Source: Alphaproteobacteria bacterium
GTDB taxonomy: Bacteria; Pseudomonadota; Alphaproteobacteria; G963923945
NCBI GenBank assembly: GCA_965199175.1
Contig: OZ240684.1
Location: 1,448,565-1,512,564, forward strand
Length of the DNA: 64,000 nt
Direction of reading: 5' to 3'
This document shows, piece by piece, positions 4,101-46,812 of this stretch. The notes beneath the pieces are model-generated. The model was not told where the DNA came from and searched no databases. It saw nothing but the letters and a program-made list of their open reading frames with translations. Each line of letters opens with the position of its first letter. Position 1 is the first letter of the stretch. Made by a program: the position numbers and the translations under genes.

Positions 4101-5213
4101 ATGAGTGACGTCAAACAAACCGGACCGGCTGGCGCAGAAATAAGCGAAGAAGATCGCATGGCTGAAGAGTGGGCAGCCATGGCTGCGGGGGATGGCAGCG
4201 GTCAGGAGGCCGGAGAAGAACAGGATGATGAATCCGGTTCAGCACGGGTTCTCAATCAGGAAGAAATTGATAGCCTGCTCGGCTTTGAAGAGAGCGACGG
4301 GATGTCCGATGATTCGGGCATCATGTCGATTGTCAACAGTGCGCTTGTATCCTATGAGCGCTTGCCGATGCTTGAGATCGTCTATGACCGGATGGTCCGG
4401 CTGTTATCAACCAGTCTGCGTAATTTTACCTCTGACAATGTCGAAGTTTCCTTAGATAATGTGAGCTCGGTGCGGTTTGGTGATTACCTGAACGCGATTC
4501 CTCTGCCGGCAATTCTGTCGGTTTTCCAGGCCGAAGAATGGGATAATTACGGCTTAATTGCTGTCGATAGTTCCCTGATTTACTCAATCGTTGATGTCTT
4601 GTTGGGGGGAAGACGCGGGGCGTCAGCCATGCGGATTGAGGGACGCCCCTACACCACCATTGAGCGGACCCTGGTCCAGCGCCTGGTTGAGATTATTCTG
4701 GCTGACCTTTCCAGTGCTTTTGATCCTTTGAGCCCGGTGACGTTTCGGCTGGACCGGCTGGAAACCAATCCCCGCTTTGCCACCATTGCCCGGCCCGCCA
4801 ATGCGGCTATCGTGACCCGCTTGCGAATCGATATGGAAGATCGCGGCGGCAAAGTGGATCTTCTGATCCCTTACGCCACCCTTGAACCGATCCGCGAATT
4901 GTTGCTCCAGATGTTTATGGGTGAAAAATTCGGACGCGATTCAATCTGGGAAAATCATTTGGCTTCCGAACTCTGGAAAACCAATGTGCCCATTGATGCT
5001 GTCCTTGACACCACCACAATGTCGCTTGGAGCTGTCATGAGGTTTCGGGTCGGCAGCAAAATCGTCTTTGAGACAACACCAGATAGCGATATTTCCCTGG
5101 TCTGCGGAAACCGTGGTATGTTTTCCGGGAAAATGGGCCGTAAAGGAAAAAATATCGCTGTACGGGTTGAAGATGAGATTATCTCCGAAAACGAAGAGGA
5201 TGAAGATAGATAA
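4101..5213 (+). CDS. fliM: Flagellar motor switch protein FliM
   Basis: 370 aa. Has the LNQEEIDSLLGF CheY-P-binding type N-terminal peptide, ERLPMLEIVYDRMVR, LIYSIVDVLLGGRRG and a C-terminal SpoA-like region. Confidence 0.93.
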   Translation: MSDVKQTGPAGAEISEEDRMAEEWAAMAAGDGSGQEAGEEQDDESGSARVLNQEEIDSLLGFEESDGMSDDSGIMSIVNSALVSYERLPMLEIVYDRMVRLLSTSLRNFTSDNVEVSLDNVSSVRFGDYLNAIPLPAILSVFQAEEWDNYGLIAVDSSLIYSIVDVLLGGRRGASAMRIEGRPYTTIERTLVQRLVEIILADLSSAFDPLSPVTFRLDRLETNPRFATIARPANAAIVTRLRIDMEDRGGKVDLLIPYATLEPIRELLLQMFMGEKFGRDSIWENHLASELWKTNVPIDAVLDTTTMSLGAVMRFRVGSKIVFETTPDSDISLVCGNRGMFSGKMGRKGKNIAVRVEDEIISENEEDEDR

Positions 5214-5219
5214 CAGGCG

Positions 5220-5726
5220 GTGGAATCAATGCCGGTATTGATCCTTGATATCATTGTGATTACCTTGTTGGGAGCCACCATCTTTTATTGCTGGCATCTC
5301 AACAAGCGTCTGGGCCACTGGCGGCGTGATGAGCAACGCTTACGCGCGATGATTGCTGATTTTGATGCGGCCACCCAGCGTGCTGAGGCCGGTATTCAGG
5401 ATTTGCGACAAACCGGCGAACATATTGAAAATACACTCCATAAACGCATGCGTGATGCCCGGGCACTGAGTGATGAATTACAGTTTATGATTGAGAATCT
5501 CGATTCCCTGACGACTCATTTTGATCAAACATCATCGCCCCCTTCATCTGAGCACTCATCATCAAAAATGCCGGATGTCGCCCGGTCTGCCGGCGGTATG
5601 GGCAGCCATACCAACCATCATAATAGCCGTGATTCCCAGTCTCGTGGTGACAAAAAAAATCCGGGAGCCTCCGTGAAATCACGTGCTGAAAGAGAATTGC
5701 TGAAAGCACTCAGATCAGGGAAATAA
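5220..5726 (+). CDS. Hypothetical single-TM coiled-coil protein of the flagellar cluster (I recall similar proteins annotated as DUF6468). GTG start at 5220, or ATG at 5229
   Basis: 168 aa with an N-terminal TM helix followed by a coiled coil. Its stop overlaps the start of the next gene (TAATG). The family assignment is from memory only. Confidence 0.5.
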   Translation: MESMPVLILDIIVITLLGATIFYCWHLNKRLGHWRRDEQRLRAMIADFDAATQRAEAGIQDLRQTGEHIENTLHKRMRDARALSDELQFMIENLDSLTTHFDQTSSPPSSEHSSSKMPDVARSAGGMGSHTNHHNSRDSQSRGDKKNPGASVKSRAERELLKALRSGK

Positions 5727-6466
5727 TGAAAACCATGCCCCGCTTAGTACCCGCGCGCGCACCCCTTAAAAAGAGCATCTTTCAACGGATACGTCTTCTG
5801 CCGATTATCATTTTTTTCGCTGTTTTGATGTTGGGGATACGAACCGATCAACTGGTTGACCGCTTTGACGCCCCTCAGTCACTTGCTCAGAGTGAAGAAA
5901 CACAATCCCCGCCGCCAGAAGCTGCGGATGCTCAGGAAGCACAGCCTCAAACCCAGGAGCAGCCTGCCCCCCCTCAGGATATTTTTCGCCAACCCCAACA
6001 GCCCGAATTCAGTGAGGCTGAAATTGATACATTGCGCTTACTGGCCGCACGGCGGGAAAAACTGGATGCCCGGGAACAAAGCCTTGAGACCCGTGAGGGC
6101 CTCCTGGTTGTTGCTGAAGAAAGAATCGATGAAAAGGTTACTGAGTTGAATCTTTTAGAAGAACGGATAAAATCTCTGATTATCCAGTATGATGAACAAG
6201 AAGAAGCGCGTCTGCGGAGCCTGGTTAAAATTTATGAAAACATGAAACCGAAAGATGCAGCACGGATTTTTGACGAATTGGATCTGGATATCTTGCTCAA
6301 TGTCATTAGCTTCATGAAAGAACGCCGGGTGGCCCCGGTTCTTGCCGCGATGGATCCCGCCAAAGCCGAAGCCATCACATCAGAAATAGCTTTGCAGTCC
6401 TTTATTCCGCTCAATGATAAAACTTTAGGTGCGATGCTCGAAAAAGAGGGAAATCCAGATCCTTAA
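5726..6466 (+). CDS. motE: MotE-like flagellar protein (MgtE-N-type domain)
   Basis: 246 aa with an N-terminal TM helix, a Pro/Gln-rich linker and a coiled coil, then LVKIYENMKPKDAARIFDELDLDILLNVISFMKERRVAPVLAAMDP, which matches the MotE/FlbB-type domain. Confidence 0.6.
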   Translation: MKTMPRLVPARAPLKKSIFQRIRLLPIIIFFAVLMLGIRTDQLVDRFDAPQSLAQSEETQSPPPEAADAQEAQPQTQEQPAPPQDIFRQPQQPEFSEAEIDTLRLLAARREKLDAREQSLETREGLLVVAEERIDEKVTELNLLEERIKSLIIQYDEQEEARLRSLVKIYENMKPKDAARIFDELDLDILLNVISFMKERRVAPVLAAMDPAKAEAITSEIALQSFIPLNDKTLGAMLEKEGNPDP

Positions 6467-6571
6467 AAATACGCGCTAAATTGACTGATCTTCAATCCGG
6501 TTGATGGATCGTACCGGATTGTTTTTTTGGGAAAACCGGCCTAAAATTGGGTCGCTTAAATCAACAATCCT

Positions 6572-6617
6572 CACGCTAAAGATTTGGATTTAAACACGCT
6601 AAAGATTTGGATTTAAA
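6572..6617. repeat. Tandem duplication, 23 bp x2
   Basis: cacgctaaagatttggatttaaa repeated twice. Confidence 0.95.
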
Positions 6618-6699
6618 AACGTTTAGATTAAGATGAAAAATGCTGAGGTGAGCAAATGGCAGAATAAAACATTTCAGAAATAATCAAAATCAAACAAAC

Positions 6700-6913
6700 A
6701 ATCAAAAAATAAAAGAGTAAAAGAGTAAATCAGAATTAAGAGATTCAATCAAAATTAAGAGAGTAAATTAAAATAGAAAAATAAATTAAGAAAAAATAAA
6801 TTAAGATAAGAGAACAAATTAAAATAAATAATTTAAAATAAATTAAGACAAAAATTTTACCCTGGTATAGTTTTACCTTGGTACAGTTTTACCCTAGTAT
6901 AACCCTGGTATAG
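6700..6913. repeat. AT-rich low-complexity repeat tract followed by a 16-bp unit repeated about 3.6 times
   Basis: Recurrent aaaagagtaa, aattaagaga and aaataaattaaga motifs, then ttttaccctggtatag / ttttaccttggtacag / ttttaccctagtataa / ccctggtatag (6855-6913). Confidence 0.85.
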
Positions 6914-7040
6914 TATGCGTCATCATTCTGACCGACTTTGATAAAAACAGATATGATAACAACAGATAAAAATATGAAACAACAATCAAGACACCGGCAT
7001 ATGGCCGGAATTGGGAGATATGCGGAGGTAAAAGTAGAAA

Positions 7041-7427
7041 ATGGCCGTTGATAAAAGCATGAATATTTTGATCGTTGATGATTATAAAACCATGTTACGC
7101 ATCATTCGAAATCTCCTTAAACAGTTAGGCTTCAACAATGTTGATGAAGCCAGCGATGGCAGTGAGGCTCTGAATAAAGCTCAGACAAAAAATTATGGTT
7201 TGATTATTTCAGATTGGAATATGGAACCCATGACCGGTTTGCAGCTGCTTAAAGAGATTCGCGGTGATGACCGGCTTGGCAAAACGCCTTTCATCATGAT
7301 CACCGCCGAAAGTAAAACTGAAAATGTTGTGGCAGCAAAACAGGCCGGGGTGAATAATTATATTGTTAAACCGTTTAATGCAGAAACACTTAAAACTAAG
7401 ATGACCAGTGTCCTTGGCCCGTTTTAA
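7041..7427 (+). CDS. cheY: Chemotaxis response regulator CheY
   Basis: 128 aa single receiver domain with the DD pair (ILIVDD), phospho-acceptor context ISDWNMEPMTG and KPF. Confidence 0.9.
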   Translation: MAVDKSMNILIVDDYKTMLRIIRNLLKQLGFNNVDEASDGSEALNKAQTKNYGLIISDWNMEPMTGLQLLKEIRGDDRLGKTPFIMITAESKTENVVAAKQAGVNNYIVKPFNAETLKTKMTSVLGPF

Positions 7428-35158: not shown

Positions 35159-36511
35159 TTATCGTCCTTTCCTGACCACCGTGCGGGCCGGTTTCTTCGG
35201 TGCCGGTTTTTTTGCTTTTGTCATATTGGTGGATTTTGCTGCGGCTTTTGTGACTGGTTTTTTGGGTGCCGGTTTTTTGGGTGGAGGTCTTTTTGAAGCC
35301 ACCTTCTTCTGAGCCGTCCTTTTCTGAACCGGCTTTTTGGAGGCTGGTCTGGCTCGCCGGCCAGCAACCGAAAAATCAGGATGAACAATCCGGCCAGAGC
35401 GGGTAAGACAAGTGGCACGCACAATATCATCCGACCAATCGATCCTGAGCTTCCCCCCTTCATCAATCAGTGGCTTCAAAAAAGCCAGGACATTGCGGGC
35501 ATACAGCATACTGGCATCAGCAGCCAGCCGCCCTGGCGGGTTGAGAGGAGCCATCACCCGTACACCATGCTGAACCACTGTACGCCCGGCTTGCGATACA
35601 GCACAATTCCCGCCGGCCTCAATCGCTAAATCGACAATAACTGAGCCTGGTTTCATTCCCCGGACCATCTCCTCAGTCATCAAGACAGGTGCCGGCTTTC
35701 CGGGAATCAGAGCCGTGGAAATAACCATATCCGCACCAGCAAGGGCAGTCGCAATCTCCTGAGCTTGCCTGCGCTGATAGTCATCACTCATTTCCCTGGC
35801 ATATCCACCGGCAGTCTCAGCCTGAGCAGATGCTGTATCTTCAACTTCAATAAATTTGGCCCCCAGGCTTTCAACTTGTTCCCTGGCTGCCGGGCGCACA
35901 TCAAAAGCCGAAACCACCGCACCCAATCTCCGGGCTGTTGCAATCGCCTGCAACCCGGCAACCCCAGCCCCAAGAATCAAAACCCTGGCCGGCGAAACAG
36001 CACCAGCAGCCGTCATCATCATTGGCAGTGCCCGGTCATAAAGCGCGGCGGCATCAATGACTGCTTTATATCCAGCTAAATTACTCTGCGATGACAAGGC
36101 ATCCGCACTTTGAGCACGGGTAATACGCGGCATCAGATCCATCGCAAACGCTGTTACCCCGGCCTTGGCAAGGCGACCGGGAAGACCCGGATTCCGGGCC
36201 GGATCCAGCAACGCAACCAGAACAGCTTTTTTCCTGATTGCCGCCAGTTCATCAGGTCCACGCCCTGCACTGAGGGGAGCACGCAGCTTCAAAACGATAT
36301 CAGCATCCTTGAGAACCGCTGTGGCCGAACGCATCACGACAGCCCCTGCTGACTCAAAGGCATCGTCAGAAACAGATGCTCCAACCCCGGCCCCGGCCTC
36401 AATCACAACTGAACAACCAAGGTCGCGATAGTGGCCAACAGTCTCAGGAGTAACAGCAACACGTGTCTCTCCGGGCCATCGCTCTTTAAGAACAGCGATT
36501 TGCATCAGCAA
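35159..36511 (-). CDS. pntAA: NAD(P) transhydrogenase subunit alpha part 1 (dI, PntAA) with a roughly 70-aa Lys/Pro-rich C-terminal tail
   Basis: MQIAVLKERWPGETRVAVTPE..., Rossmann motif VLILGAGVAGLQAIATARRLGA, then a tail ...KKPVQKRTAQKKVASKRPPPKKPAPKKPVTKAAAKSTNMTKAKKPAPKKPARTVVRKGR. Confidence 0.9.
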   Translation of the reverse strand: MLMQIAVLKERWPGETRVAVTPETVGHYRDLGCSVVIEAGAGVGASVSDDAFESAGAVVMRSATAVLKDADIVLKLRAPLSAGRGPDELAAIRKKAVLVALLDPARNPGLPGRLAKAGVTAFAMDLMPRITRAQSADALSSQSNLAGYKAVIDAAALYDRALPMMMTAAGAVSPARVLILGAGVAGLQAIATARRLGAVVSAFDVRPAAREQVESLGAKFIEVEDTASAQAETAGGYAREMSDDYQRRQAQEIATALAGADMVISTALIPGKPAPVLMTEEMVRGMKPGSVIVDLAIEAGGNCAVSQAGRTVVQHGVRVMAPLNPPGRLAADASMLYARNVLAFLKPLIDEGGKLRIDWSDDIVRATCLTRSGRIVHPDFSVAGRRARPASKKPVQKRTAQKKVASKRPPPKKPAPKKPVTKAAAKSTNMTKAKKPAPKKPARTVVRKGR

Positions 36512-36516
36512 TACCT

Positions 36517-36558
36517 AATCTGAAAAATGAGAAGAATAATCTGAAAAATGAGAGGAAT
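36517..36558. repeat. Tandem duplication, 21 bp x2, upstream of pntAA
   Basis: aatctgaaaaatgagaagaat / aatctgaaaaatgagaggaat, followed by degenerate gagaaat motifs. Confidence 0.9.
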
Positions 36559-37038
36559 GAGAAATAAAAGGAAATGAGAAAATTAAAGAATGTACATGCT
36601 GAGAAAAAACCAAAAAGAGACCGAAAATGACAGAGAAAACAAAAACACCCGATAGTGAATACCAAACATAAAATATTCTTTTTGTTGACCAACCAGATCG
36701 GACTATGCCTCATTCAAAAAACCTTGCCAACCGGTTAATCATCAAATTTTTCAGATTCTGCTCCTGGTTTTTTATTCCTGGTTTTCTGTTTCGGCTTTTG
36801 GGAAGATTCTTTTCCCGCCATCTTTTCGCTGCTCTGTCCTTTTGATATCTTTTCCTCTATATCTTTGCTGAGTATTTCAGCATGATCCGTTCCACTTATT
36901 CAGATCACGCTTATCCCATGTCCCATCCCCCATCGTCACCAACCCTCAGGGATGCCTGAAGCCTTAGCCAAACAGCCTCCGGGAATCGCCACAGCCCGGC
37001 CCCATAGAGCCGATGTGACGCAACATAGTGCTGCCCCC

Positions 37039-38352
37039 ATGCGTCCTGTGCGGGTCCATGTGCTGGTTGATCTGGCCTGGCGACCCGAAGCCGGTGGCCA
37101 TGTCAAATGCTGGGAAGCCTTTGCTCATGCCGCTTTAGAGGTCGCCGATCAGATTGATCTGACCCTACATTTTTCCAGACCCTCCGGTTCAACCCATGGT
37201 CAGAAACCCGTACCCTATGGTCCGATCATAGAAATTGGTCCCCAGACACGTTACCATTTACATCGACCGGTGTTTTCGACTGCCCGCCTGCCTTTCCTTG
37301 ATGCCGCCCCGGATCACACGGATCTCGCGCCCTATCATCCCGGTTTAGCCAAAGCCTTAACCGGAGCCGATGTCATCCATACCACCGATGCTTTTTTCAA
37401 TTTTGCCAAAACAGCCACCCGGGTTGCCAAACGCTCCGGTATTCCTCTGGTGAATTCCATCCATACCGATACCCCGGTTTACACCCGCCAATACACCGCC
37501 GATATTATTCATCAACTGTTCGGGAAAGGATGGATCAGCCGTTTTCTTCTGGGTACCATGGCGGTTGATCAGCGTGGTGAACGCAGCATGCGCCGCAAAC
37601 TGGCCAGGCATCAGGCCCAGGCTGCTTTTGCCCTGCTCAGCCGACCAGAAGATATGGAAGATGCCCTGAGGGTTCTGCCCCCTGAGCGTATCGGCTTTCT
37701 CAGCCGGGGTCTCGATACGATACAGTTTACCCCCCAAAAAAGAGACCGGACCTGGCTGTATGAAGCCTACGGAATTCCCCCTGATGCGGTGGTGCTGCTC
37801 ACTGTGGGACGCATTGATAGCATCAAACGGACATTGATCATCGCGCAGGCAGCCAAAATCCTGATTGATCAGGGATTGCCGCTTTGGTTGGTGTGTGCCG
37901 GGGAAGGACCGGATCGTCCCCATATTGTCACCATGCTGGGGCAACGGGTTCTGTGTCCGGGATTTGTCCCCGCCAACAGCATTGCCCGCCTGGAAGCCAG
38001 TGCTGATATTTTTGCCATGCCATCAAAAAATGAAACCTTCGGTAATGCGGCTGCCGAAGCTCTGGCATCCGGCCTGCCGATCCTGGTCTCAGAAGAAAGC
38101 GGTATGGAACGCCTGCTGGGTGATGGGGCTGGTGGTCTGGTGGTCAATGGCGGGGCAGTTGAATGGGCCAATGCGCTTCGGCCTTTAATCACCGACCGAC
38201 CGGCCCGTATCCGCATGGCCAAAGCCGCGCGCCATACTGCCGAAAAAAGCCTGCCTTCCTGGCTTGAAATTTTGAAACGTGATCTGTTACCAGTCTGGCA
38301 AGCCGCCGCCGGTCAGACCAATATAACAGACCACAATACAGACCAGTTCTGA
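37039..38352 (+). CDS. Glycosyltransferase (GT-B, family 4/1-like)
   Basis: C-terminal motif ADIFAMPSKNETFGNAAAEALASGLPILVSEESG (E-x7-E type). Start chosen at MRPVRVHVLVDL; the ORF track begins at 36952. Confidence 0.8.
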   Translation: MRPVRVHVLVDLAWRPEAGGHVKCWEAFAHAALEVADQIDLTLHFSRPSGSTHGQKPVPYGPIIEIGPQTRYHLHRPVFSTARLPFLDAAPDHTDLAPYHPGLAKALTGADVIHTTDAFFNFAKTATRVAKRSGIPLVNSIHTDTPVYTRQYTADIIHQLFGKGWISRFLLGTMAVDQRGERSMRRKLARHQAQAAFALLSRPEDMEDALRVLPPERIGFLSRGLDTIQFTPQKRDRTWLYEAYGIPPDAVVLLTVGRIDSIKRTLIIAQAAKILIDQGLPLWLVCAGEGPDRPHIVTMLGQRVLCPGFVPANSIARLEASADIFAMPSKNETFGNAAAEALASGLPILVSEESGMERLLGDGAGGLVVNGGAVEWANALRPLITDRPARIRMAKAARHTAEKSLPSWLEILKRDLLPVWQAAAGQTNITDHNTDQF

Positions 38353-38534
38353 GAATCTGCCATCAGGGATTCATCCATCAGCATCCTCCGATGCCTGATA
38401 CCGGTCAATCAGAACCTTTAAGTGGGTACGGATACGGGGAATTGCCACCAGTTCCCTTAAAAAATAATCCCGGTTGGGTCCCTGATCACGTTGCCGCATG
38501 GCCACGATGGCATCATTTACAAGGCACCACCCAA

Positions 38535-39614
38535 TCAATCTTTCCAGTCTTCTTCAAAGCCCTCCATCGGCAGAGAGTCAATGCCATAGAACGCTTGCCG
38601 ATGAAGATGTAGATTCACCCGAACGGCGGTATTTTTGTGAGGCGTGTTAATGCCAAGATGTTCACTTACAGCAGTCTCGGAAATCATCTGTTCACCCCAT
38701 TGGCCTGTACGACCATCCCAAATTTCAGCGTCCGAAACCAGTTGTTTGGCAGCAGTCTGAAAGGTCCATTGTGCATCCGGATTTCGGTAAACCCACCATG
38801 CATCCTTGAGCGGATAATCAATGCGTGGTGGAATCTCAGAACCACTACCACCAGATCGTTCACGGGGGCGGGTGCCCGCCCAATCACCGTAGATAATCTT
38901 TCGATCATTACGTTTTTTTTGTAATTGTTGAACCAGTTCATGATTGGTAAACGTGACTTTGCTACGCCCAATACAATTTCTGAACACCTTTGGTATTGTC
39001 GTGCATGAAACAACAATCGGCACCTGAGCATCGATATCAGTAAGCATGTCATCAATGATACCGCTAAACCAACGATGTAAACCCAATGCATCTTGCGACC
39101 ATCCACCTTCCAAAATTATGGTGAAGTCAGCAGTTCCCTCCGCTTTAAGTGCACCAATCACCTGACCCAAATTGATCGGCTCACATTGATGAAAAATACG
39201 TAATGCAAAGGTACGTTTGTATTTGCGATACTTCTCAATCTGACAGCGAATTTCCACTTCACTCTGATCACGAAGCTGTAGACACGGAATAATCCGGCTA
39301 TGTTCTCCAATAAAATTACACCATGATGCGAACGCATCTGCAGGATCAGAAAGCTGCTTCAATTCTATCTGCGCAGATGCTTCGGGATTTGGGTAGGTGT
39401 AGTCCCGATCAATATCCAGGAAATATGGACCGCTTTCATAAGCAGTTTGAAATCGTTCAATCGCATTATTTATAGAATGAGCGTTGACCCAAGGCGCAAG
39501 CAGAACACATGGTACCATGCGTTCTTTTGTTGCAAGAGGCAAATACTCCAACCCTCGCATCTCACTTGGCCGAATTGCGAGAGTTGGAACGTAAAGGGCA
39601 CTCGTAAAAAGCAT
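38535..39614 (-). CDS. Uncharacterised protein resembling the 'Beta protein' family (function unknown)
   Basis: 359 aa. The N-terminal LYVPTLAIRPSEMRGLEYL...PCVLLAP and C-terminal IIYGDWAGTRP...PRIDYPLKDAWWVYR resemble my memory of the Pfam Beta_protein family. The gene is AT-rich (a hand count of one 60-nt line gives 40% GC). It is the last gene of a tightly spaced three-gene unit. Confidence 0.5.
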   Translation of the reverse strand: MLFTSALYVPTLAIRPSEMRGLEYLPLATKERMVPCVLLAPWVNAHSINNAIERFQTAYESGPYFLDIDRDYTYPNPEASAQIELKQLSDPADAFASWCNFIGEHSRIIPCLQLRDQSEVEIRCQIEKYRKYKRTFALRIFHQCEPINLGQVIGALKAEGTADFTIILEGGWSQDALGLHRWFSGIIDDMLTDIDAQVPIVVSCTTIPKVFRNCIGRSKVTFTNHELVQQLQKKRNDRKIIYGDWAGTRPRERSGGSGSEIPPRIDYPLKDAWWVYRNPDAQWTFQTAAKQLVSDAEIWDGRTGQWGEQMISETAVSEHLGINTPHKNTAVRVNLHLHRQAFYGIDSLPMEGFEEDWKD

Positions 39615-39623
39615 AGAATATAT

Positions 39624-40133
39624 TTATACAGCAATGTTCTGGAGCCGAATTTCCATTGCTCCTTTTGAGACCCCAAAATTCTCCGCCAAAGCTTCAATTA
39701 CCGTATCACTGACATTTCCGCCAAGCTCTTCAAGGCGTTTTTTAACCGATTTTTCTGGCATTAAAATATCACTTGCCAATCGATTGGCTTCAAATTCAGT
39801 TTGTTCGGGTGCTCCGGAGCGATAAAGCACCGTGTCCGTAATACCATTCGGAGACTGATCAATTATGTGACGGTGTAATAAAAAATGTGCGATTTCATGC
39901 GCTATCGTAAATCGTTGTCGTCCCTTCGCCTCGAAGCGATTGACTTTGATTGTGTAACTACCATCTCTTTTTAAAATGCACCCTGAAATACCGGGACCAA
40001 GATTTGCAATTTTAACCTGTAGGTCAAATCGCCCAGCAAGAGCTCCAACAGGAACCGAATTTTCAGCCTGATGTTCTTCGATAATATCGCGTTGTTCTTT
40101 CGTCAGCCTATTCCATTCCGTTGACTGCGCCAT
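39624..40133 (-). CDS. ImmA/IrrE-family zinc metallopeptidase
   Basis: 169 aa with FTIAHEIAHFLLH (HExxH) and a downstream ...EANRLASDILMP, typical of the Peptidase_M78/DUF955 family. It lies 2 nt after the upstream gene's stop and 9 nt before the next start. Confidence 0.8.
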   Translation of the reverse strand: MAQSTEWNRLTKEQRDIIEEHQAENSVPVGALAGRFDLQVKIANLGPGISGCILKRDGSYTIKVNRFEAKGRQRFTIAHEIAHFLLHRHIIDQSPNGITDTVLYRSGAPEQTEFEANRLASDILMPEKSVKKRLEELGGNVSDTVIEALAENFGVSKGAMEIRLQNIAV

Positions 40134-40135
40134 TG

Positions 40136-40519
40136 TTATCTTGCCTCCTCATCTGAGTCTTCATCCTCTTCCAAATTACGACCAACATTATATGCAACTG
40201 CAGTAACTTTCTTGTCTAAATTTTTTTCTAAATCGCCCATTGCCTTTTTTACCTCTGCCTTCGCATCATCCTTAAGATTTTTAATAGTATAAGCTGCGAT
40301 CACTCCGACACCTATACCGACCGCTGCAAGAACGATAGTAACGCATGTCAGCATGATTGTTAAAAAATCGACATAACTAATATCTAGCGTTGCCAGCGGT
40401 TCAGAAGAAATCGCATCAGGAAAGTTAACGACTTGATACAAGAGGGAAAAAACCCAAAGAAACCCAGCTCCGCAAAAGGCTGCAACGACAAATTTTAAGA
40501 AGTTCCATATCCGACTCAT
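40136..40519 (-). CDS. Small two-TM membrane protein with a charged helical, acidic C-terminal tail. Function unknown
   Basis: 127 aa. TM1 is about FLKFVVAAFCGAGFLWVFSLL and TM2 about FLTIMLTCVTIVLAAVGIGVGVIAAY, with a tail ...LEEDEDSDEEAR. Very AT-rich (hand counts of 35-38% GC in two 60-nt lines). Confidence 0.6.
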   Translation of the reverse strand: MSRIWNFLKFVVAAFCGAGFLWVFSLLYQVVNFPDAISSEPLATLDISYVDFLTIMLTCVTIVLAAVGIGVGVIAAYTIKNLKDDAKAEVKKAMGDLEKNLDKKVTAVAYNVGRNLEEDEDSDEEAR

Positions 40520-40720
40520 ACTACCGACACCTTATATTTTTCAGACATATCAAATTTGTTCCAAATTCTCGTATTAACAGCGGCTAGAAGTAATTTTTCC
40601 AAGTTTTCGTGCATAACTCTTCATCCTCAATGCCGCTCAATCTGCATAAATAAATAGTCGTTCAAGTCAAATAATTTGTTTTTATTCTTCTTCTCCTGTA
40701 CGTCTTATGATCTGCTTCTT

Positions 40721-41467
40721 TCAGCCTTGGATATCACAGCCCAGAAAATCACGACCACACAACCGGCAGGCTTCCAGAACTGAAAAGGAGCCGGCTGCCG
40801 GATCCACGATCACATCCCCGGGATGGCTCACCGCCTCAATCAACCGGGTCTGTAACCTAACCGGCTTGGGATGAACCCCCTTGCCAACAGGGACTTTTTC
40901 CGACCACATATCGCGAATATCATGGAGTTTCCAAACCCCCTTAGCCCGCCGGGGTTGCCGTTGCATAACCACCAGATATTCACAGACCCGCCGGGTGCGG
41001 TACCCCATCCCCATTCGCTGCTTATCCCAGGTCACCATATCAACAACATCCAGCCGGGTTCCGGTGAGCCAATCGGTAAAACCCTTACACAGATGGAATT
41101 TATCCATCCATAAAAACAAATGCCCGGAAGGAATCAAAATACGATCAATCTCGCGGATAAATTCGTTGATCTTTTTTTCAGTCATTTGAAGCAGACCAGC
41201 CCGGCCCTTCTGGCGTTCCCCTTCATTGCCATAGGCCTGCTGATCCAGAATGCCGCGATATTGGGGGTCAAAAAAAACCACCGGAGAGCACTGTTCCGGC
41301 AGCATCTTCAAAAACTCCACCCCATCGATTTTTAAGCGGGTATTGTATTCCAAACCCTCAGGGAGCTGACGAAACGCACAAGGCGCATGGTCACGTTTCG
41401 AAGAAAAAACCCCTGCCTCACCCACCGGCCCGGCATGGTCAGGGACTGGCAAAACTTCCGAACGCAT
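40721..41467 (-). CDS. Orphan beta-class DNA (N6-adenine or N4-cytosine) methyltransferase
   Basis: 248 aa. The motif IV-like FFDPQY precedes the motif I-like VIVDPAAGSFSVLEA, which is the beta-class order. No restriction endonuclease gene is recognisable nearby. Confidence 0.8.
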   Translation of the reverse strand: MRSEVLPVPDHAGPVGEAGVFSSKRDHAPCAFRQLPEGLEYNTRLKIDGVEFLKMLPEQCSPVVFFDPQYRGILDQQAYGNEGERQKGRAGLLQMTEKKINEFIREIDRILIPSGHLFLWMDKFHLCKGFTDWLTGTRLDVVDMVTWDKQRMGMGYRTRRVCEYLVVMQRQPRRAKGVWKLHDIRDMWSEKVPVGKGVHPKPVRLQTRLIEAVSHPGDVIVDPAAGSFSVLEACRLCGRDFLGCDIQG

Positions 41468-45093: not shown

Positions 45094-46422
45094 TCAGCTT
45101 CTCCCGGCTGTTTGCAGAGCTTCCATCAAGGCATGCGCCATCATCGCCGCACTCATCAAAGAGGTATCGCGCAATTTGCGTAACGGCAAGGCCGCCACTG
45201 AATCACCACGGGTAAATGAACCGATATGATCAATCCCGGGAATGCCCACCGGCAGATACACTGCTGATTTTCGCGCCCCCACACTACCCGGACGCCCAAT
45301 CAGAATGAGAGAAGTATCATGAGGCGGAGGAGCCAGATCGGTATCGAATGTCGAAACCCAAATGAAGCAATCAGCCTCACCACGTGCCAGGAGTGTTCTG
45401 GTCGCATAAGCATCGGCATCATGATGCGGCTTACCGTTGGCAAAGCTCACCCGCAGGGGATAGCCGCTCTGCCATGTCGCGGCCTGGGCAGCACCCTGAA
45501 TATTATTCGACCCACTCAATGGAAACCCGGCACAACGCTGTTCAAGATTGATCTTTTTGATCAAAAGATTGATCGCTTCAACGGCATGATCACCGGCAGT
45601 ATCACTCAATTCGGCGGCGTTCCATACAATCACCCCGTAAGACGCATTGCGGATATGGGCCAGAACATCCTCAAGGGCTGCCCTGGGAACGCCAGCCACT
45701 CTGCGGGCCGCCAATATGCGCCCTTCATACAATGCTTTGAGAGCCAGAAAAATCTCAGCCAACTGATCGGGCCTGCCAGGGAGATGAAGGGGTTGACGAC
45801 CAGTCGGTGATACCCCGGCTGCCGTATCAAGGCCGCGCCCGATATAGATGACCCGGCGATCTTGCGGTTGTGGTTTGAATAAAGCAGATCTGGTCCAGAC
45901 ACATTTTTCAAAAAAACGCGGGGCGGCGGTGACTCCATCGGTCCCGGCCATGATAATCAGATCAGCCCGGTTGCGTATTTCGCCAATCGTTGTGGTTACC
46001 CATCCTTCAGTCTGGACCACCCTGGCATTGCGAAAATATCCTTCAGAAGCCGCATGATCAACAACCCCACCGGTGTGATCAGCCAGCTGTAAGAACGCTT
46101 TAAACCCCTCAATATCAGTGGCTAAACCACCATAGAGCGGCATCCGGGACCCCCGGATAAGAGTTGCCGCTTGTCGCAGAGCCTCAGCCAGAGAAACCGG
46201 CTTGCCTGCCACCATCGGTTCGGCATCCATTCCGGCCCCGGTAAAACGCTCCTGAGCACGCACACAGCCGCCTTTGCGCAACCGCAAGGAACGATCCGCA
46301 AGCACCGAAACCTGTAAATCATCACAACACAGCCCGCAAAACGGGCATGGAACCGATTTTTGGATAGAACACTCTCCCTTTTGCTTTCTCACATCCCAAA
46401 AAACGGGCAGAAAAAGCATCAT
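45094..46422 (-). CDS. fhcB: Formyltransferase/hydrolase complex subunit B (FmdB-like)
   Basis: 442 aa with an N-terminal CPFCGLCCDD Cys cluster and a molybdopterin-oxidoreductase-like body. The exact start is uncertain. Confidence 0.85.
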   Translation of the reverse strand: MMLFLPVFWDVRKQKGECSIQKSVPCPFCGLCCDDLQVSVLADRSLRLRKGGCVRAQERFTGAGMDAEPMVAGKPVSLAEALRQAATLIRGSRMPLYGGLATDIEGFKAFLQLADHTGGVVDHAASEGYFRNARVVQTEGWVTTTIGEIRNRADLIIMAGTDGVTAAPRFFEKCVWTRSALFKPQPQDRRVIYIGRGLDTAAGVSPTGRQPLHLPGRPDQLAEIFLALKALYEGRILAARRVAGVPRAALEDVLAHIRNASYGVIVWNAAELSDTAGDHAVEAINLLIKKINLEQRCAGFPLSGSNNIQGAAQAATWQSGYPLRVSFANGKPHHDADAYATRTLLARGEADCFIWVSTFDTDLAPPPHDTSLILIGRPGSVGARKSAVYLPVGIPGIDHIGSFTRGDSVAALPLRKLRDTSLMSAAMMAHALMEALQTAGRS

Positions 46423-46450
46423 CCCAAAGATAGTACACGCAACCTACGTT

Positions 46451-46480
46451 ATGTACCTAAGTTATATGTACCTAAGTTAT
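46451..46480. repeat. Perfect tandem duplication, 15 bp x2, upstream of fhcB
   Basis: atgtacctaagttat x2. Confidence 0.95.
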
Positions 46481-46565
46481 GTCATATTACGTGATGTTAA
46501 TGGACGCGACATATTTTATATTATACATATGTTTTATGTTATACCCGACTACGTAATACTTAAAT

Positions 46566-46620
46566 TCATCAATGACATACTTAAAGTCATCAATGATATA
46601 CTTAAAGTCATCAATGACGT
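46566..46620. repeat. Tandem repeat, 21 bp x2.6
   Basis: tcatcaatgacatacttaaag / tcatcaatgatatacttaaag / tcatcaatgacgt. Confidence 0.95.
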
Positions 46621-46812
46621 TATACAGAGTAAATACCAGATAACTATACGTAATAAATACAAATAAATTACGTAATAAATACTAAAAACATAAATACTAA
46701 AAACCGACGTAAACACCAAATACCAACCGTGTCACCCATACCAACAATTCGGTTCCCCAAACAGGGTGATGCCATGCTTTGTTACACAACCAAAATCATC
46801 ATCAGCTGTTCG

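Follow-up and report, generated by a model that had tools for sequence, protein, structure and literature searches.

The window analysed here is a 64,000-nt stretch of the genome of an Alphaproteobacteria bacterium (GenBank assembly GCA_965199175.1, contig OZ240684.1, positions 1,448,565 to 1,512,564), within which three consecutive minus-strand genes form a compact cassette that an earlier sequence-only reading had put forward as a candidate defence or stress-sensing module. In transcriptional order, this trio encodes a small membrane protein (gene 1), an ImmA/IrrE/CapP-type metallopeptidase (gene 2), and a protein of the phage P4 beta family (gene 3). All three open reading frames (ORFs) are intact and separated by spacers of 2 nt and then 9 nt, and their positions, lengths, strand, spacing, and interpretation as a single operon matched the earlier description exactly, as did the neighbouring genes, namely a glycosyltransferase family 4 (GT4) gene, a DNA methyltransferase gene, and the one-carbon genes fhcC/D/A (Table 1).

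The GC content of the cassette is 43.7%, with a minimum of 38.8% over any 400-nt segment, compared to about 54% in the DNA directly adjoining it and 50.8% over the remainder of the window. This deficit of 7–10 points supports the foreign origin that had been proposed, although the size of the contrast (35–40% vs 68% and 55%) had been overstated by counts made on single lines of sequence. Other sharp AT-rich troughs in the window are intergenic and located at 36400–36800 (GC 0.38) and 46400–46800 (GC 0.32). Upstream of gene 1, a 32-codon ORF (40515..40613, minus strand) has a TGA overlapping the gene 1 ATG (ATGA); it is not conserved in relatives and was discarded as probably spurious.

Table 1. 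Cassette genes and adjoining features, in window coordinates
Feature	Coordinates	Strand	Description
Gene 1	40136..40519	-	127 aa, small membrane protein, predicted effector/toxin
Gene 2	39624..40133	-	169 aa, ImmA/IrrE/CapP-type Zn metallopeptidase, peptidase domain only
Gene 3	38535..39614	-	359 aa, P4 beta-family protein
Leader	40520..40720	-	201 nt, AT-rich, 33.8% GC, starts right after the methyltransferase stop codon
Methyltransferase, type II N6/N4 DNA	40721..41467	-	PADLOC MTase_II 6e-75, intact
Restriction endonuclease 3' remnant	38371..38538	-	55-aa ORF, last 47 codons of the endonuclease survive

Insertion into a type II restriction-modification locus

PntB assigns the host to uncultured Alphaproteobacteria. 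The insertion site could be reconstructed from the closest relative genome (L068), whose PntB is 95% identical to that of the window, the best relatives with a name being metagenome-assembled genomes of Kiloniellaceae and Rhodospirillales at about 74%. The corresponding region of L068 is syntenic and includes fhcA-fhcD-fhcC, a methyltransferase gene, a gene encoding a 232-aa protein, a convergent GT4 gene, and pntAAB. The PADLOC model REase_II (2.4e-44) identifies the 232-aa product as a type II restriction endonuclease, the gene for which overlaps the methyltransferase stop, such that L068 carries an intact methyltransferase–endonuclease pair (L068 positions 4972-6428). The window methyltransferase is syntenic with the one in L068, at 76% nucleotide identity, and hence native to the lineage, whereas the pair that is full in L068 is not complete in the window. 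What remains of the endonuclease is a C-terminal remnant, 47 residues of which align with the end of the L068 protein at 62% identity (E 1e-16).

At the nucleotide level, homology between the window and L068 extends up to the methyltransferase stop (40721) and picks up again at 38516, which falls within the 3' end of the endonuclease gene. The right-hand crossover lies at AGATTGATT, a microhomology of 9 nt that takes in the beta stop codon. As delimited by this alignment, the mobile unit is exactly the leader plus the three genes (38535..40720, 2.2 kb), and it replaced about 184 codons, or about 80%, of the endonuclease gene. Only chance-level short repeats were found at the ends of the insert, and scans of the window for Rfam families and tRNAs did not reveal an integration site. 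Since the cassette replaced its cognate endonuclease gene, the methyltransferase is a recently orphaned restriction-modification (R-M) methylase, and is a bystander rather than a fourth component of the cassette. The sequence-only reading was hence right to call it an orphan, yet it is the leftover of an overwritten type II R-M pair and not a partner of the inserted genes.

Within the adjoining native sequence, the GT4 gene (36952-38352, plus strand) is also syntenic in L068; it additionally matches the Pfam family GT4-conflict (PF20706, 9e-15), and its role may not be purely housekeeping. Further along, PntA (AlaDh_PNT; 35159-36511, minus strand) displays a ~70-residue Lys/Pro/Ala-rich, histone-H1-like C-terminal extension (KKPAPKKPVTKAAAK). 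The L068 orthologue shows a faint HC2 match, and such an extension is unusual for a transhydrogenase alpha subunit.

Conservation, protein families and regulation of the trio

The trio recurs in about 50 alphaproteobacterial species. A scan based on one genome per species yielded 52 genome loci, 46 of which were analysed for flanks and upstream DNA. Nearly all 52 are alphaproteobacterial, with representatives from Rhodobacterales, Hyphomicrobiales, Kiloniellaceae, Hyphomonadaceae, Sphingopyxis, and Sneathiella. When considering informative loci, i.e. those with a full-length beta gene plus upstream DNA, phmmer detected all three genes in the same order and on the same strand in ~43 of ~45 cases, typically with 9-nt spacers, so that the co-occurrence raised as a question by the sequence-only reading proved strong. 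At two loci with beta proteins 29-32% identical to the one in the window (L048 and L049), gene 1 was missed by phmmer, and the ORF found in its place still encodes two transmembrane (TM) helices and an acidic tail. Complete trios were also identified in 5 IMG/VR viral contigs, and one copy is carried by a prophage, close to terminase and endolysin genes. Across 42 loci, pairwise identities are correlated between the three proteins (Spearman rho 0.85-0.90), which indicates that the three genes are inherited as one unit, and cassette GC is lower than that of the flanks in 42 of 44 loci, with a median difference of -10.7 points.

No comparable conservation was observed around the trio. Clustering of 400 flanking ORFs from the 46 loci did not identify any family common to more than 4 loci, the commonest (≤4/46 loci) being a serine recombinase and a DNA methyltransferase. 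The lack of a helix-turn-helix (HTH) partner noted in the earlier description thus holds both for the window, where no HTH gene was found, and for the 46 loci, none of which pointed to a conserved HTH neighbour. A conserved fourth gene, whether HTH, cII, or methyltransferase, was rejected by this flank clustering and by tblastn searches for cII. Annotation of 124 flanking proteins using Pfam and PADLOC identified mostly housekeeping functions (LepA, HflX, ThiC, GatB, and others), along with a few genes of mobile elements and one example each of R-M, type IIG, AbiP2/DRT, PD-T7-1, and PDC-S06 components. Overall, the trio behaves as a solitary, promiscuously inserted foreign unit rather than as a regular resident of defence islands. 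Methylase or restriction neighbours do appear repeatedly, though not in most loci: beyond the window, a C-5 cytosine DNA methylase gene overlaps the start of gene 1 in one viral contig (L060, IMG/VR UViG_3300027852_000766, 6055-7092), and an EcoRI-type methylase and GmrSD are located upstream of the trio in L003.

The product of gene 3 matches the Pfam family Beta_protein (PF14350), to which the beta protein of satellite phage P4 gave its name, at 182 bits (2.3e-53) and over profile positions 1-341 of 342. The resemblance to this family reported by the sequence-only reading was therefore genuine, although limiting it to the termini was too narrow, as the match extends from end to end. The protein also matches the PADLOC “beta” model (3.7e-44), and a tblastn search of phage records aligned it to P4 beta over 99% of the query at 24.7% identity (E 2e-22). 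A partial match to the PADLOC model PD-Lambda-2_C (3.2e-5) covers residues 226-323, and P4 beta itself matches this model at 8e-14, bridging the two families. With 641 representatives (50% identity) in a set of 1.84 billion proteins, the beta family is a small one. A conserved set of residues, invariant even when P4 beta is included (R15, E18, K30, D67, Q113, R139, T205, Y242-G-D244, R264, D266, R277, R332, N334, H336, and Q340), is mostly located at or just past the predicted strands. In contrast to P4 and Pmp11 beta, the peptidase-associated beta clade further displays a loop with the sequence STRPRE, at residues 252-259 and with a low predicted local distance difference test score (pLDDT), and a conserved acidic C-terminal tail, FxEDWxD.

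The predicted structure of gene 3 (pLDDT 86.4, predicted template-modelling score 0.87) consists of alternating strand and helix elements. Its Foldseek matches are generic TIM barrels, with TM-scores of about 0.3-0.5, including dehydroquinase, triose-phosphate isomerase, aldolases, and carboxyltransferase domains, and the sole clear match in a viral structure library was an uncharacterised Gordonia phage protein (E 7e-11). Searching the PDB by sequence returned nothing meaningful, and no NCBIfam family was matched, sce7725 included. Beta is hence predicted to adopt a divergent TIM-barrel-like fold, and the placement of the invariant residues suggests either an enzyme or a ligand-binding barrel. 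Specific biochemical assignments were dropped, as none emerged from the PDB, Foldseek, the viral library, or NCBIfam.

Gene 2 belongs to the ImmA/IrrE family as previously assigned, with a match to Peptidase_M78 (PF06114) of 66.1 bits vs a cut-off of 22 and an intact HEIAHFLLH motif. The zinc-site residues H79, E80, H83, and E113 are each at least 95% conserved in 49 peptidase homologues, E113 being aligned with the third zinc ligand of CapP. CapP is also the best PADLOC model (capP, 2e-33) and the nearest solved structure (7T5T, E 7e-6), yet the profile match is limited to positions 3-151 of 242. Other models were matched at lower significance, including RmrA (about 1e-11), PD-Lambda-2_B (3e-7, positions 292-367 of 402), and the NCBIfam spr1629 repressor/antitoxin family (3e-10, 39.6 bits and thus far under the family cut-off of 335). 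CapP itself comprises a peptidase domain (residues 1-141), an HTH domain (142-182), and a GAF domain (182-288), detects single-stranded DNA in an interdomain groove, and relies on a cysteine switch in many members (PMC13228613). Gene 2 ends at residue 169, without HTH or GAF domain, and has no cysteine in the loop equivalent to the switch (88-112). Taken together with the truncated profile match, this means that gene 2 does not include the known sensor apparatus of CapP.

Gene 1 did not match any significant Pfam, NCBIfam, or PADLOC family. The two TM helices and acidic tail described earlier were recovered as two strongly hydrophobic 19-residue segments, at about residues 10-28 and 55-73, and as 14 Asp/Glu among the last 45 residues. 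Exactly two TM helices were predicted in 44 of 46 gene 1 homologues, most of which also share an ELEEGFDPxDxGxR-like motif in the C-terminal tail. P4 Gop and the protein in the Gop position of Pasteurella phage Pmp11 likewise begin with a hydrophobic hairpin, followed by a polar helical tail.

Upstream DNA provided a distinct line of evidence. Exact GAAC-N7-GAAC or GTTC-N7-GTTC boxes, which are documented operators of alphaproteobacterial LexA (PMC3091678, PMC9578287), were found in 28 of these 46 loci; their distance upstream of gene 1 ranges over about 20-170 nt and is mostly 40-60 nt. Including L048, L049, a Neorhizobium plasmid locus (L057), and 2 of the 5 viral contigs brings this count to 33 of 54 copies. 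Within the same loci, box density reaches 4.44 per kb at -150..-15 vs 0.05 per kb elsewhere, an 88-fold enrichment, with 27 boxes observed in this interval vs about 0.3 expected. In Paracoccus denitrificans DSM 413 (L041), for instance, an exact box (GAACAAAAAAAGAAC) is located at -61. The nearest relatives of the window copy, L003 and L060, have no LexA box, not even when a mismatch is tolerated. An element in the window leader resembling a decayed box, GAACAAATTTGATAT, was judged coincidental, as the alignment with L003 revealed homologous non-box sequence, and the E. coli-type CTGT-N8-ACAG box was set aside, the host being an alphaproteobacterium. The distribution of operators leads to a strong prediction that the operon is LexA-repressed and DNA-damage-induced in most hosts, and boxes for host LexA probably explain the missing dedicated HTH repressor in most relatives.

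Candidate role in phage defence and rival explanations

Two systems that include beta proteins, Gop-beta-cII and PD-lambda-2, have been validated as anti-phage (PMC9122126, PMC9519451). The gop-beta-cII locus protects E. coli against lambda and P1, its Gop protein being toxic without beta (PMC9122126), and responds to expression of a phage accessory gene by triggering cell death (bioRxiv 10.1101/2023.04.06.535777). PD-lambda-2 is an abortive-infection (Abi), toxin–antitoxin (TA)-like system in which a HigB-like protein is combined with an Xre-HTH/M78-peptidase fusion, toxic on its own, and with a P4-beta-like protein needed for defence (PMC9519451). By analogy with these systems, we favour, with moderate confidence, a reading of the trio as a self-contained mobile, peptidase-containing, and cII-less relative of Gop-beta-cII and PD-lambda-2 that may act as a TA-like or Abi switch. 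This is based on the homology of two components to validated systems, on mobility and prophage carriage, and on the integrity of the operon. The defence or stress-sensing role suggested from the sequence is now better supported than it was, while individual protein roles are assigned by analogy and their wiring could differ, as the PD-lambda-2 data warn.

Under the favoured reading, the gene 1 protein would be an inner-membrane hairpin with both termini in the cytoplasm, acting as a growth-arresting or membrane-damaging effector in the role of Gop, and beta would either restrain it or serve as a sensor. One of the two proteins encoded alongside the M78 peptidase would be its post-translational target, as suggested by the lack of both an HTH substrate and a GAF domain able to sense single-stranded DNA. 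The acidic C-terminal tails of the gene 1 protein and of beta would be candidate docking or cleavage sites, and, more speculatively, the STRPRE loop could be considered alongside these tails (FxEDWxD in beta) as a candidate interaction or cleavage motif. Upon infection or DNA damage, cleavage would then either activate or silence the module. LexA would, in most hosts, keep transcription off until DNA damage frees the operon. As for the window genome, the cassette arrived by recombination and took the place of the endonuclease gene in a resident type II R-M system.

Several observations weigh against this reading. Homology between gene 1 and Gop could not be demonstrated, and gene 1 was rejected as a Gop homologue following negative results from BLASTP (E 0.55), hhalign (probability 0.3%), and the PADLOC gop model PDLC03001, which P4 Gop matches at 5e-70; the correspondence between the two proteins, itself drawn by analogy, is one of gene position, size, and architecture only. 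No cII was detected in the window or in the 52 genome loci using tblastn with P4 and Pmp11 cII, the weak match in L039 (E 0.12) being non-significant. The toxic member of PD-lambda-2 is the peptidase protein and not the first gene, hence roles could be reversed, and the fold of beta offers no biochemical clue, with generic TIM barrels as the best structural matches in the PDB (TM-scores of about 0.4-0.5). A consistent defence-island context was rejected: the trio itself is conserved, whereas its flanks are mostly housekeeping and do not display the co-localisation that had been envisaged. Finally, the window leader lacks a LexA box even when one mismatch is allowed, and its 201 nt include no convincing sigma-70 promoter or terminator. 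The latter makes it possible that this copy is transcribed by read-through from the methyltransferase gene.

A more specific version of the same proposal is possible but clearly more tentative, namely that the trio represents a new class of Abi switch in which a peptidase uncoupled from any repressor would process the membrane toxin or beta, with LexA providing the DNA-damage input. If true, M78 peptidases could trigger a defence effector post-translationally and not only derepress transcription, and Paracoccus denitrificans would offer a route into the biochemistry of the TIM-barrel-like P4 beta.

The rival explanation that best withstands these data, while unlikely, is an SOS effector module, in which a LexA-controlled membrane protein would briefly arrest division or growth before being tuned or removed by the peptidase and beta during recovery. 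SidA and TisB, to which such an effector may be likened, are SOS-induced small membrane proteins. The boxes upstream of 33 of 54 copies and their 88-fold enrichment would be expected here, the flanks are mostly housekeeping, the first gene does encode a small membrane protein, and cell-division inhibitors are among the LexA targets listed in an SOS review. Unlike a core stress regulon, however, the cassette is sporadic, low in GC, mobile, and found at a different site in nearly every genome. Prophage copies exist, two of the three genes are homologous to validated anti-phage components, and several copies, including the one in the window, do not have a box.

It appears rather improbable that the trio is instead a selfish addiction (toxin–antitoxin) cassette that mainly secures its own persistence on mobile DNA and chromosomes and has no adaptive part in defence. 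Gop and beta act as a toxin-antitoxin pair (PMC9122126), M78-type proteins match antitoxin families (NCBIfam spr1629 and PADLOC RmrA), and the cassette is compact and inserts promiscuously without its own recombinase, including on a plasmid and in prophages. Against this, the homologous P4 and PD-lambda-2 systems confer phage resistance (PMC9122126, PMC9519451), most copies are chromosomal and lie between housekeeping genes, where addiction would bring little benefit, and LexA control suggests conditional deployment. Lastly, an ordinary ImmA/ImmR lysogeny module or induction module of an integrative and conjugative element, with the peptidase cleaving a cI/ImmR-like repressor and the other genes as passengers, is very hard to reconcile with the absence of an HTH gene in the window and of a conserved HTH neighbour in the 46 loci, with the co-evolution of the three genes as a unit, and with an insert made up of the leader and three genes with sharp junctions and no surrounding element, even if gene 2 encodes a member of the ImmA/IrrE family, prophages harbour some of the copies, and the Pmp11 gop-beta-cII-like module adjoins a CI repressor gene.

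Returning to the relationship with Gop-beta-cII and PD-lambda-2 that we favour, the trio would be a candidate defence system for Alphaproteobacteria that is not called by current PADLOC models, and its insertion in the window a case in which the endonuclease of one defence gene set was overwritten by another, the methyltransferase being spared. Paracoccus denitrificans DSM 413 provides a tractable native host.

Comparison with known systems

The exact composition of the trio is undescribed within the literature searched, which covered PF14350, the function of sce7725/sce7726, and M78 peptidases combined with LexA or anti-phage activity. Similarly, no PADLOC v2 model set calls it as a system, and only beta strongly matches a system-specific model. 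The sequence-only reading, which knew of no described system with this composition, was thus correct for the full trio, whereas Gop-beta-cII and PD-lambda-2 do hold one and two of its three components, respectively.

Gop-beta-cII shares with the trio a homologous full-length beta (PF14350), preceded in a tight same-strand operon by a gene for a ~130-aa protein whose N-terminal TM hairpin is followed by a helical tail, and both are accessory mobile DNA. In the P4 record, gop (133 aa) is followed after 2 nt by beta (355 aa), with cII (264 aa, sce7726 family) convergent downstream. The trio differs by the M78 peptidase gene inserted between the first gene and beta, by the lack of cII in the window and about 50 relatives, by a first gene without detectable Gop homology, and by its hosts, which are Alphaproteobacteria and not enterobacteria; most trio copies also have an upstream LexA box. 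In Pasteurella phage Pmp11 (L002, OR544128, 2849-5881), genes for a 131-aa hairpin protein and beta are associated with a convergent cII-like gene including a SAP domain, and the module lies directly downstream of a CI-like repressor gene on the same strand, resembling a lysogeny-expressed moron.

PD-lambda-2, described in E. coli by Vassallo et al. (2022), is likewise composed of three genes, with an M78 peptidase protein followed by a P4-beta-like protein. Its first gene, however, encodes a HigB-like toxin instead of a membrane protein, its peptidase forms part of an Xre HTH fusion protein of about 400 aa (vs the bare 169 aa of the trio), and the matches between its models and the trio are weak and partial (3e-7 and 3e-5).

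Outside of beta-containing systems, CapP/CapH, IrrE/DdrO, and ImmA/ImmR use the same HExxH...E zinc site as gene 2, CapP being the closest, and share a link to DNA damage, which for the trio is provided by the LexA boxes of its relatives. Unlike these systems, the trio includes no gene for an HTH substrate, no HTH or GAF sensor domain, and no cysteine switch, and DNA damage seems to reach it at the level of transcription, via host LexA, and not by way of the peptidase. RosmerTA and other Xre-COG2856 (spr1629-type) systems resemble the trio in their M78 domain and in the TA-like manner in which a peptidase protein and a toxic partner are paired, yet RmrA and spr1629 are about 370-400 aa long with an N-terminal HTH, are matched over the peptidase region only, and are found without beta.

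A link between these arrangements is provided by L057, a locus on a plasmid of Neorhizobium sp. NCHU2750 (CP030830, 2952-5796), in which the trio is combined with a convergent sce7726/cII-like gene in the same orientation as in P4. Here, gene 1 encodes a 160-aa protein with an acidic tail, whose TM2 passes the 1.6 hydropathy threshold and whose weaker N-terminal segment aligns with TM1. The M78 peptidase, unannotated in the record, matches that of the window at 8e-38, beta is 30% identical, the cII-like gene scores 104.5 bits vs an NCBIfam sce7726 cut-off of 70, and a GAAC-N7-GAAC box is located 32 nt upstream. The cII/sce7726 gene was found only in plasmid loci (L057-L059), and plasmids of Azospirillum and Sinorhizobium combine beta and sce7726 with other upstream genes. 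On the Azospirillum ramasamyi plasmid (L058, NZ_CP029836, 2005-5810), these are accompanied by a divergent sigma-70 factor, a hypothetical gene, and a longer (267-aa) ImmA/IrrE peptidase, i.e. another peptidase-beta arrangement. From the four-gene locus of L057 and these beta plus sce7726 plasmids, it follows that beta is a constant element combined with variable partners. Its partners are interchangeable, i.e. Gop, a HigB-like protein with an Xre-peptidase fusion, or a two-TM protein with a bare peptidase, with cII optional, and this modularity, along with the intermediate composition of L057 and the LexA operator, leads to concrete hypotheses as to which components serve as effector, sensor, and regulator.

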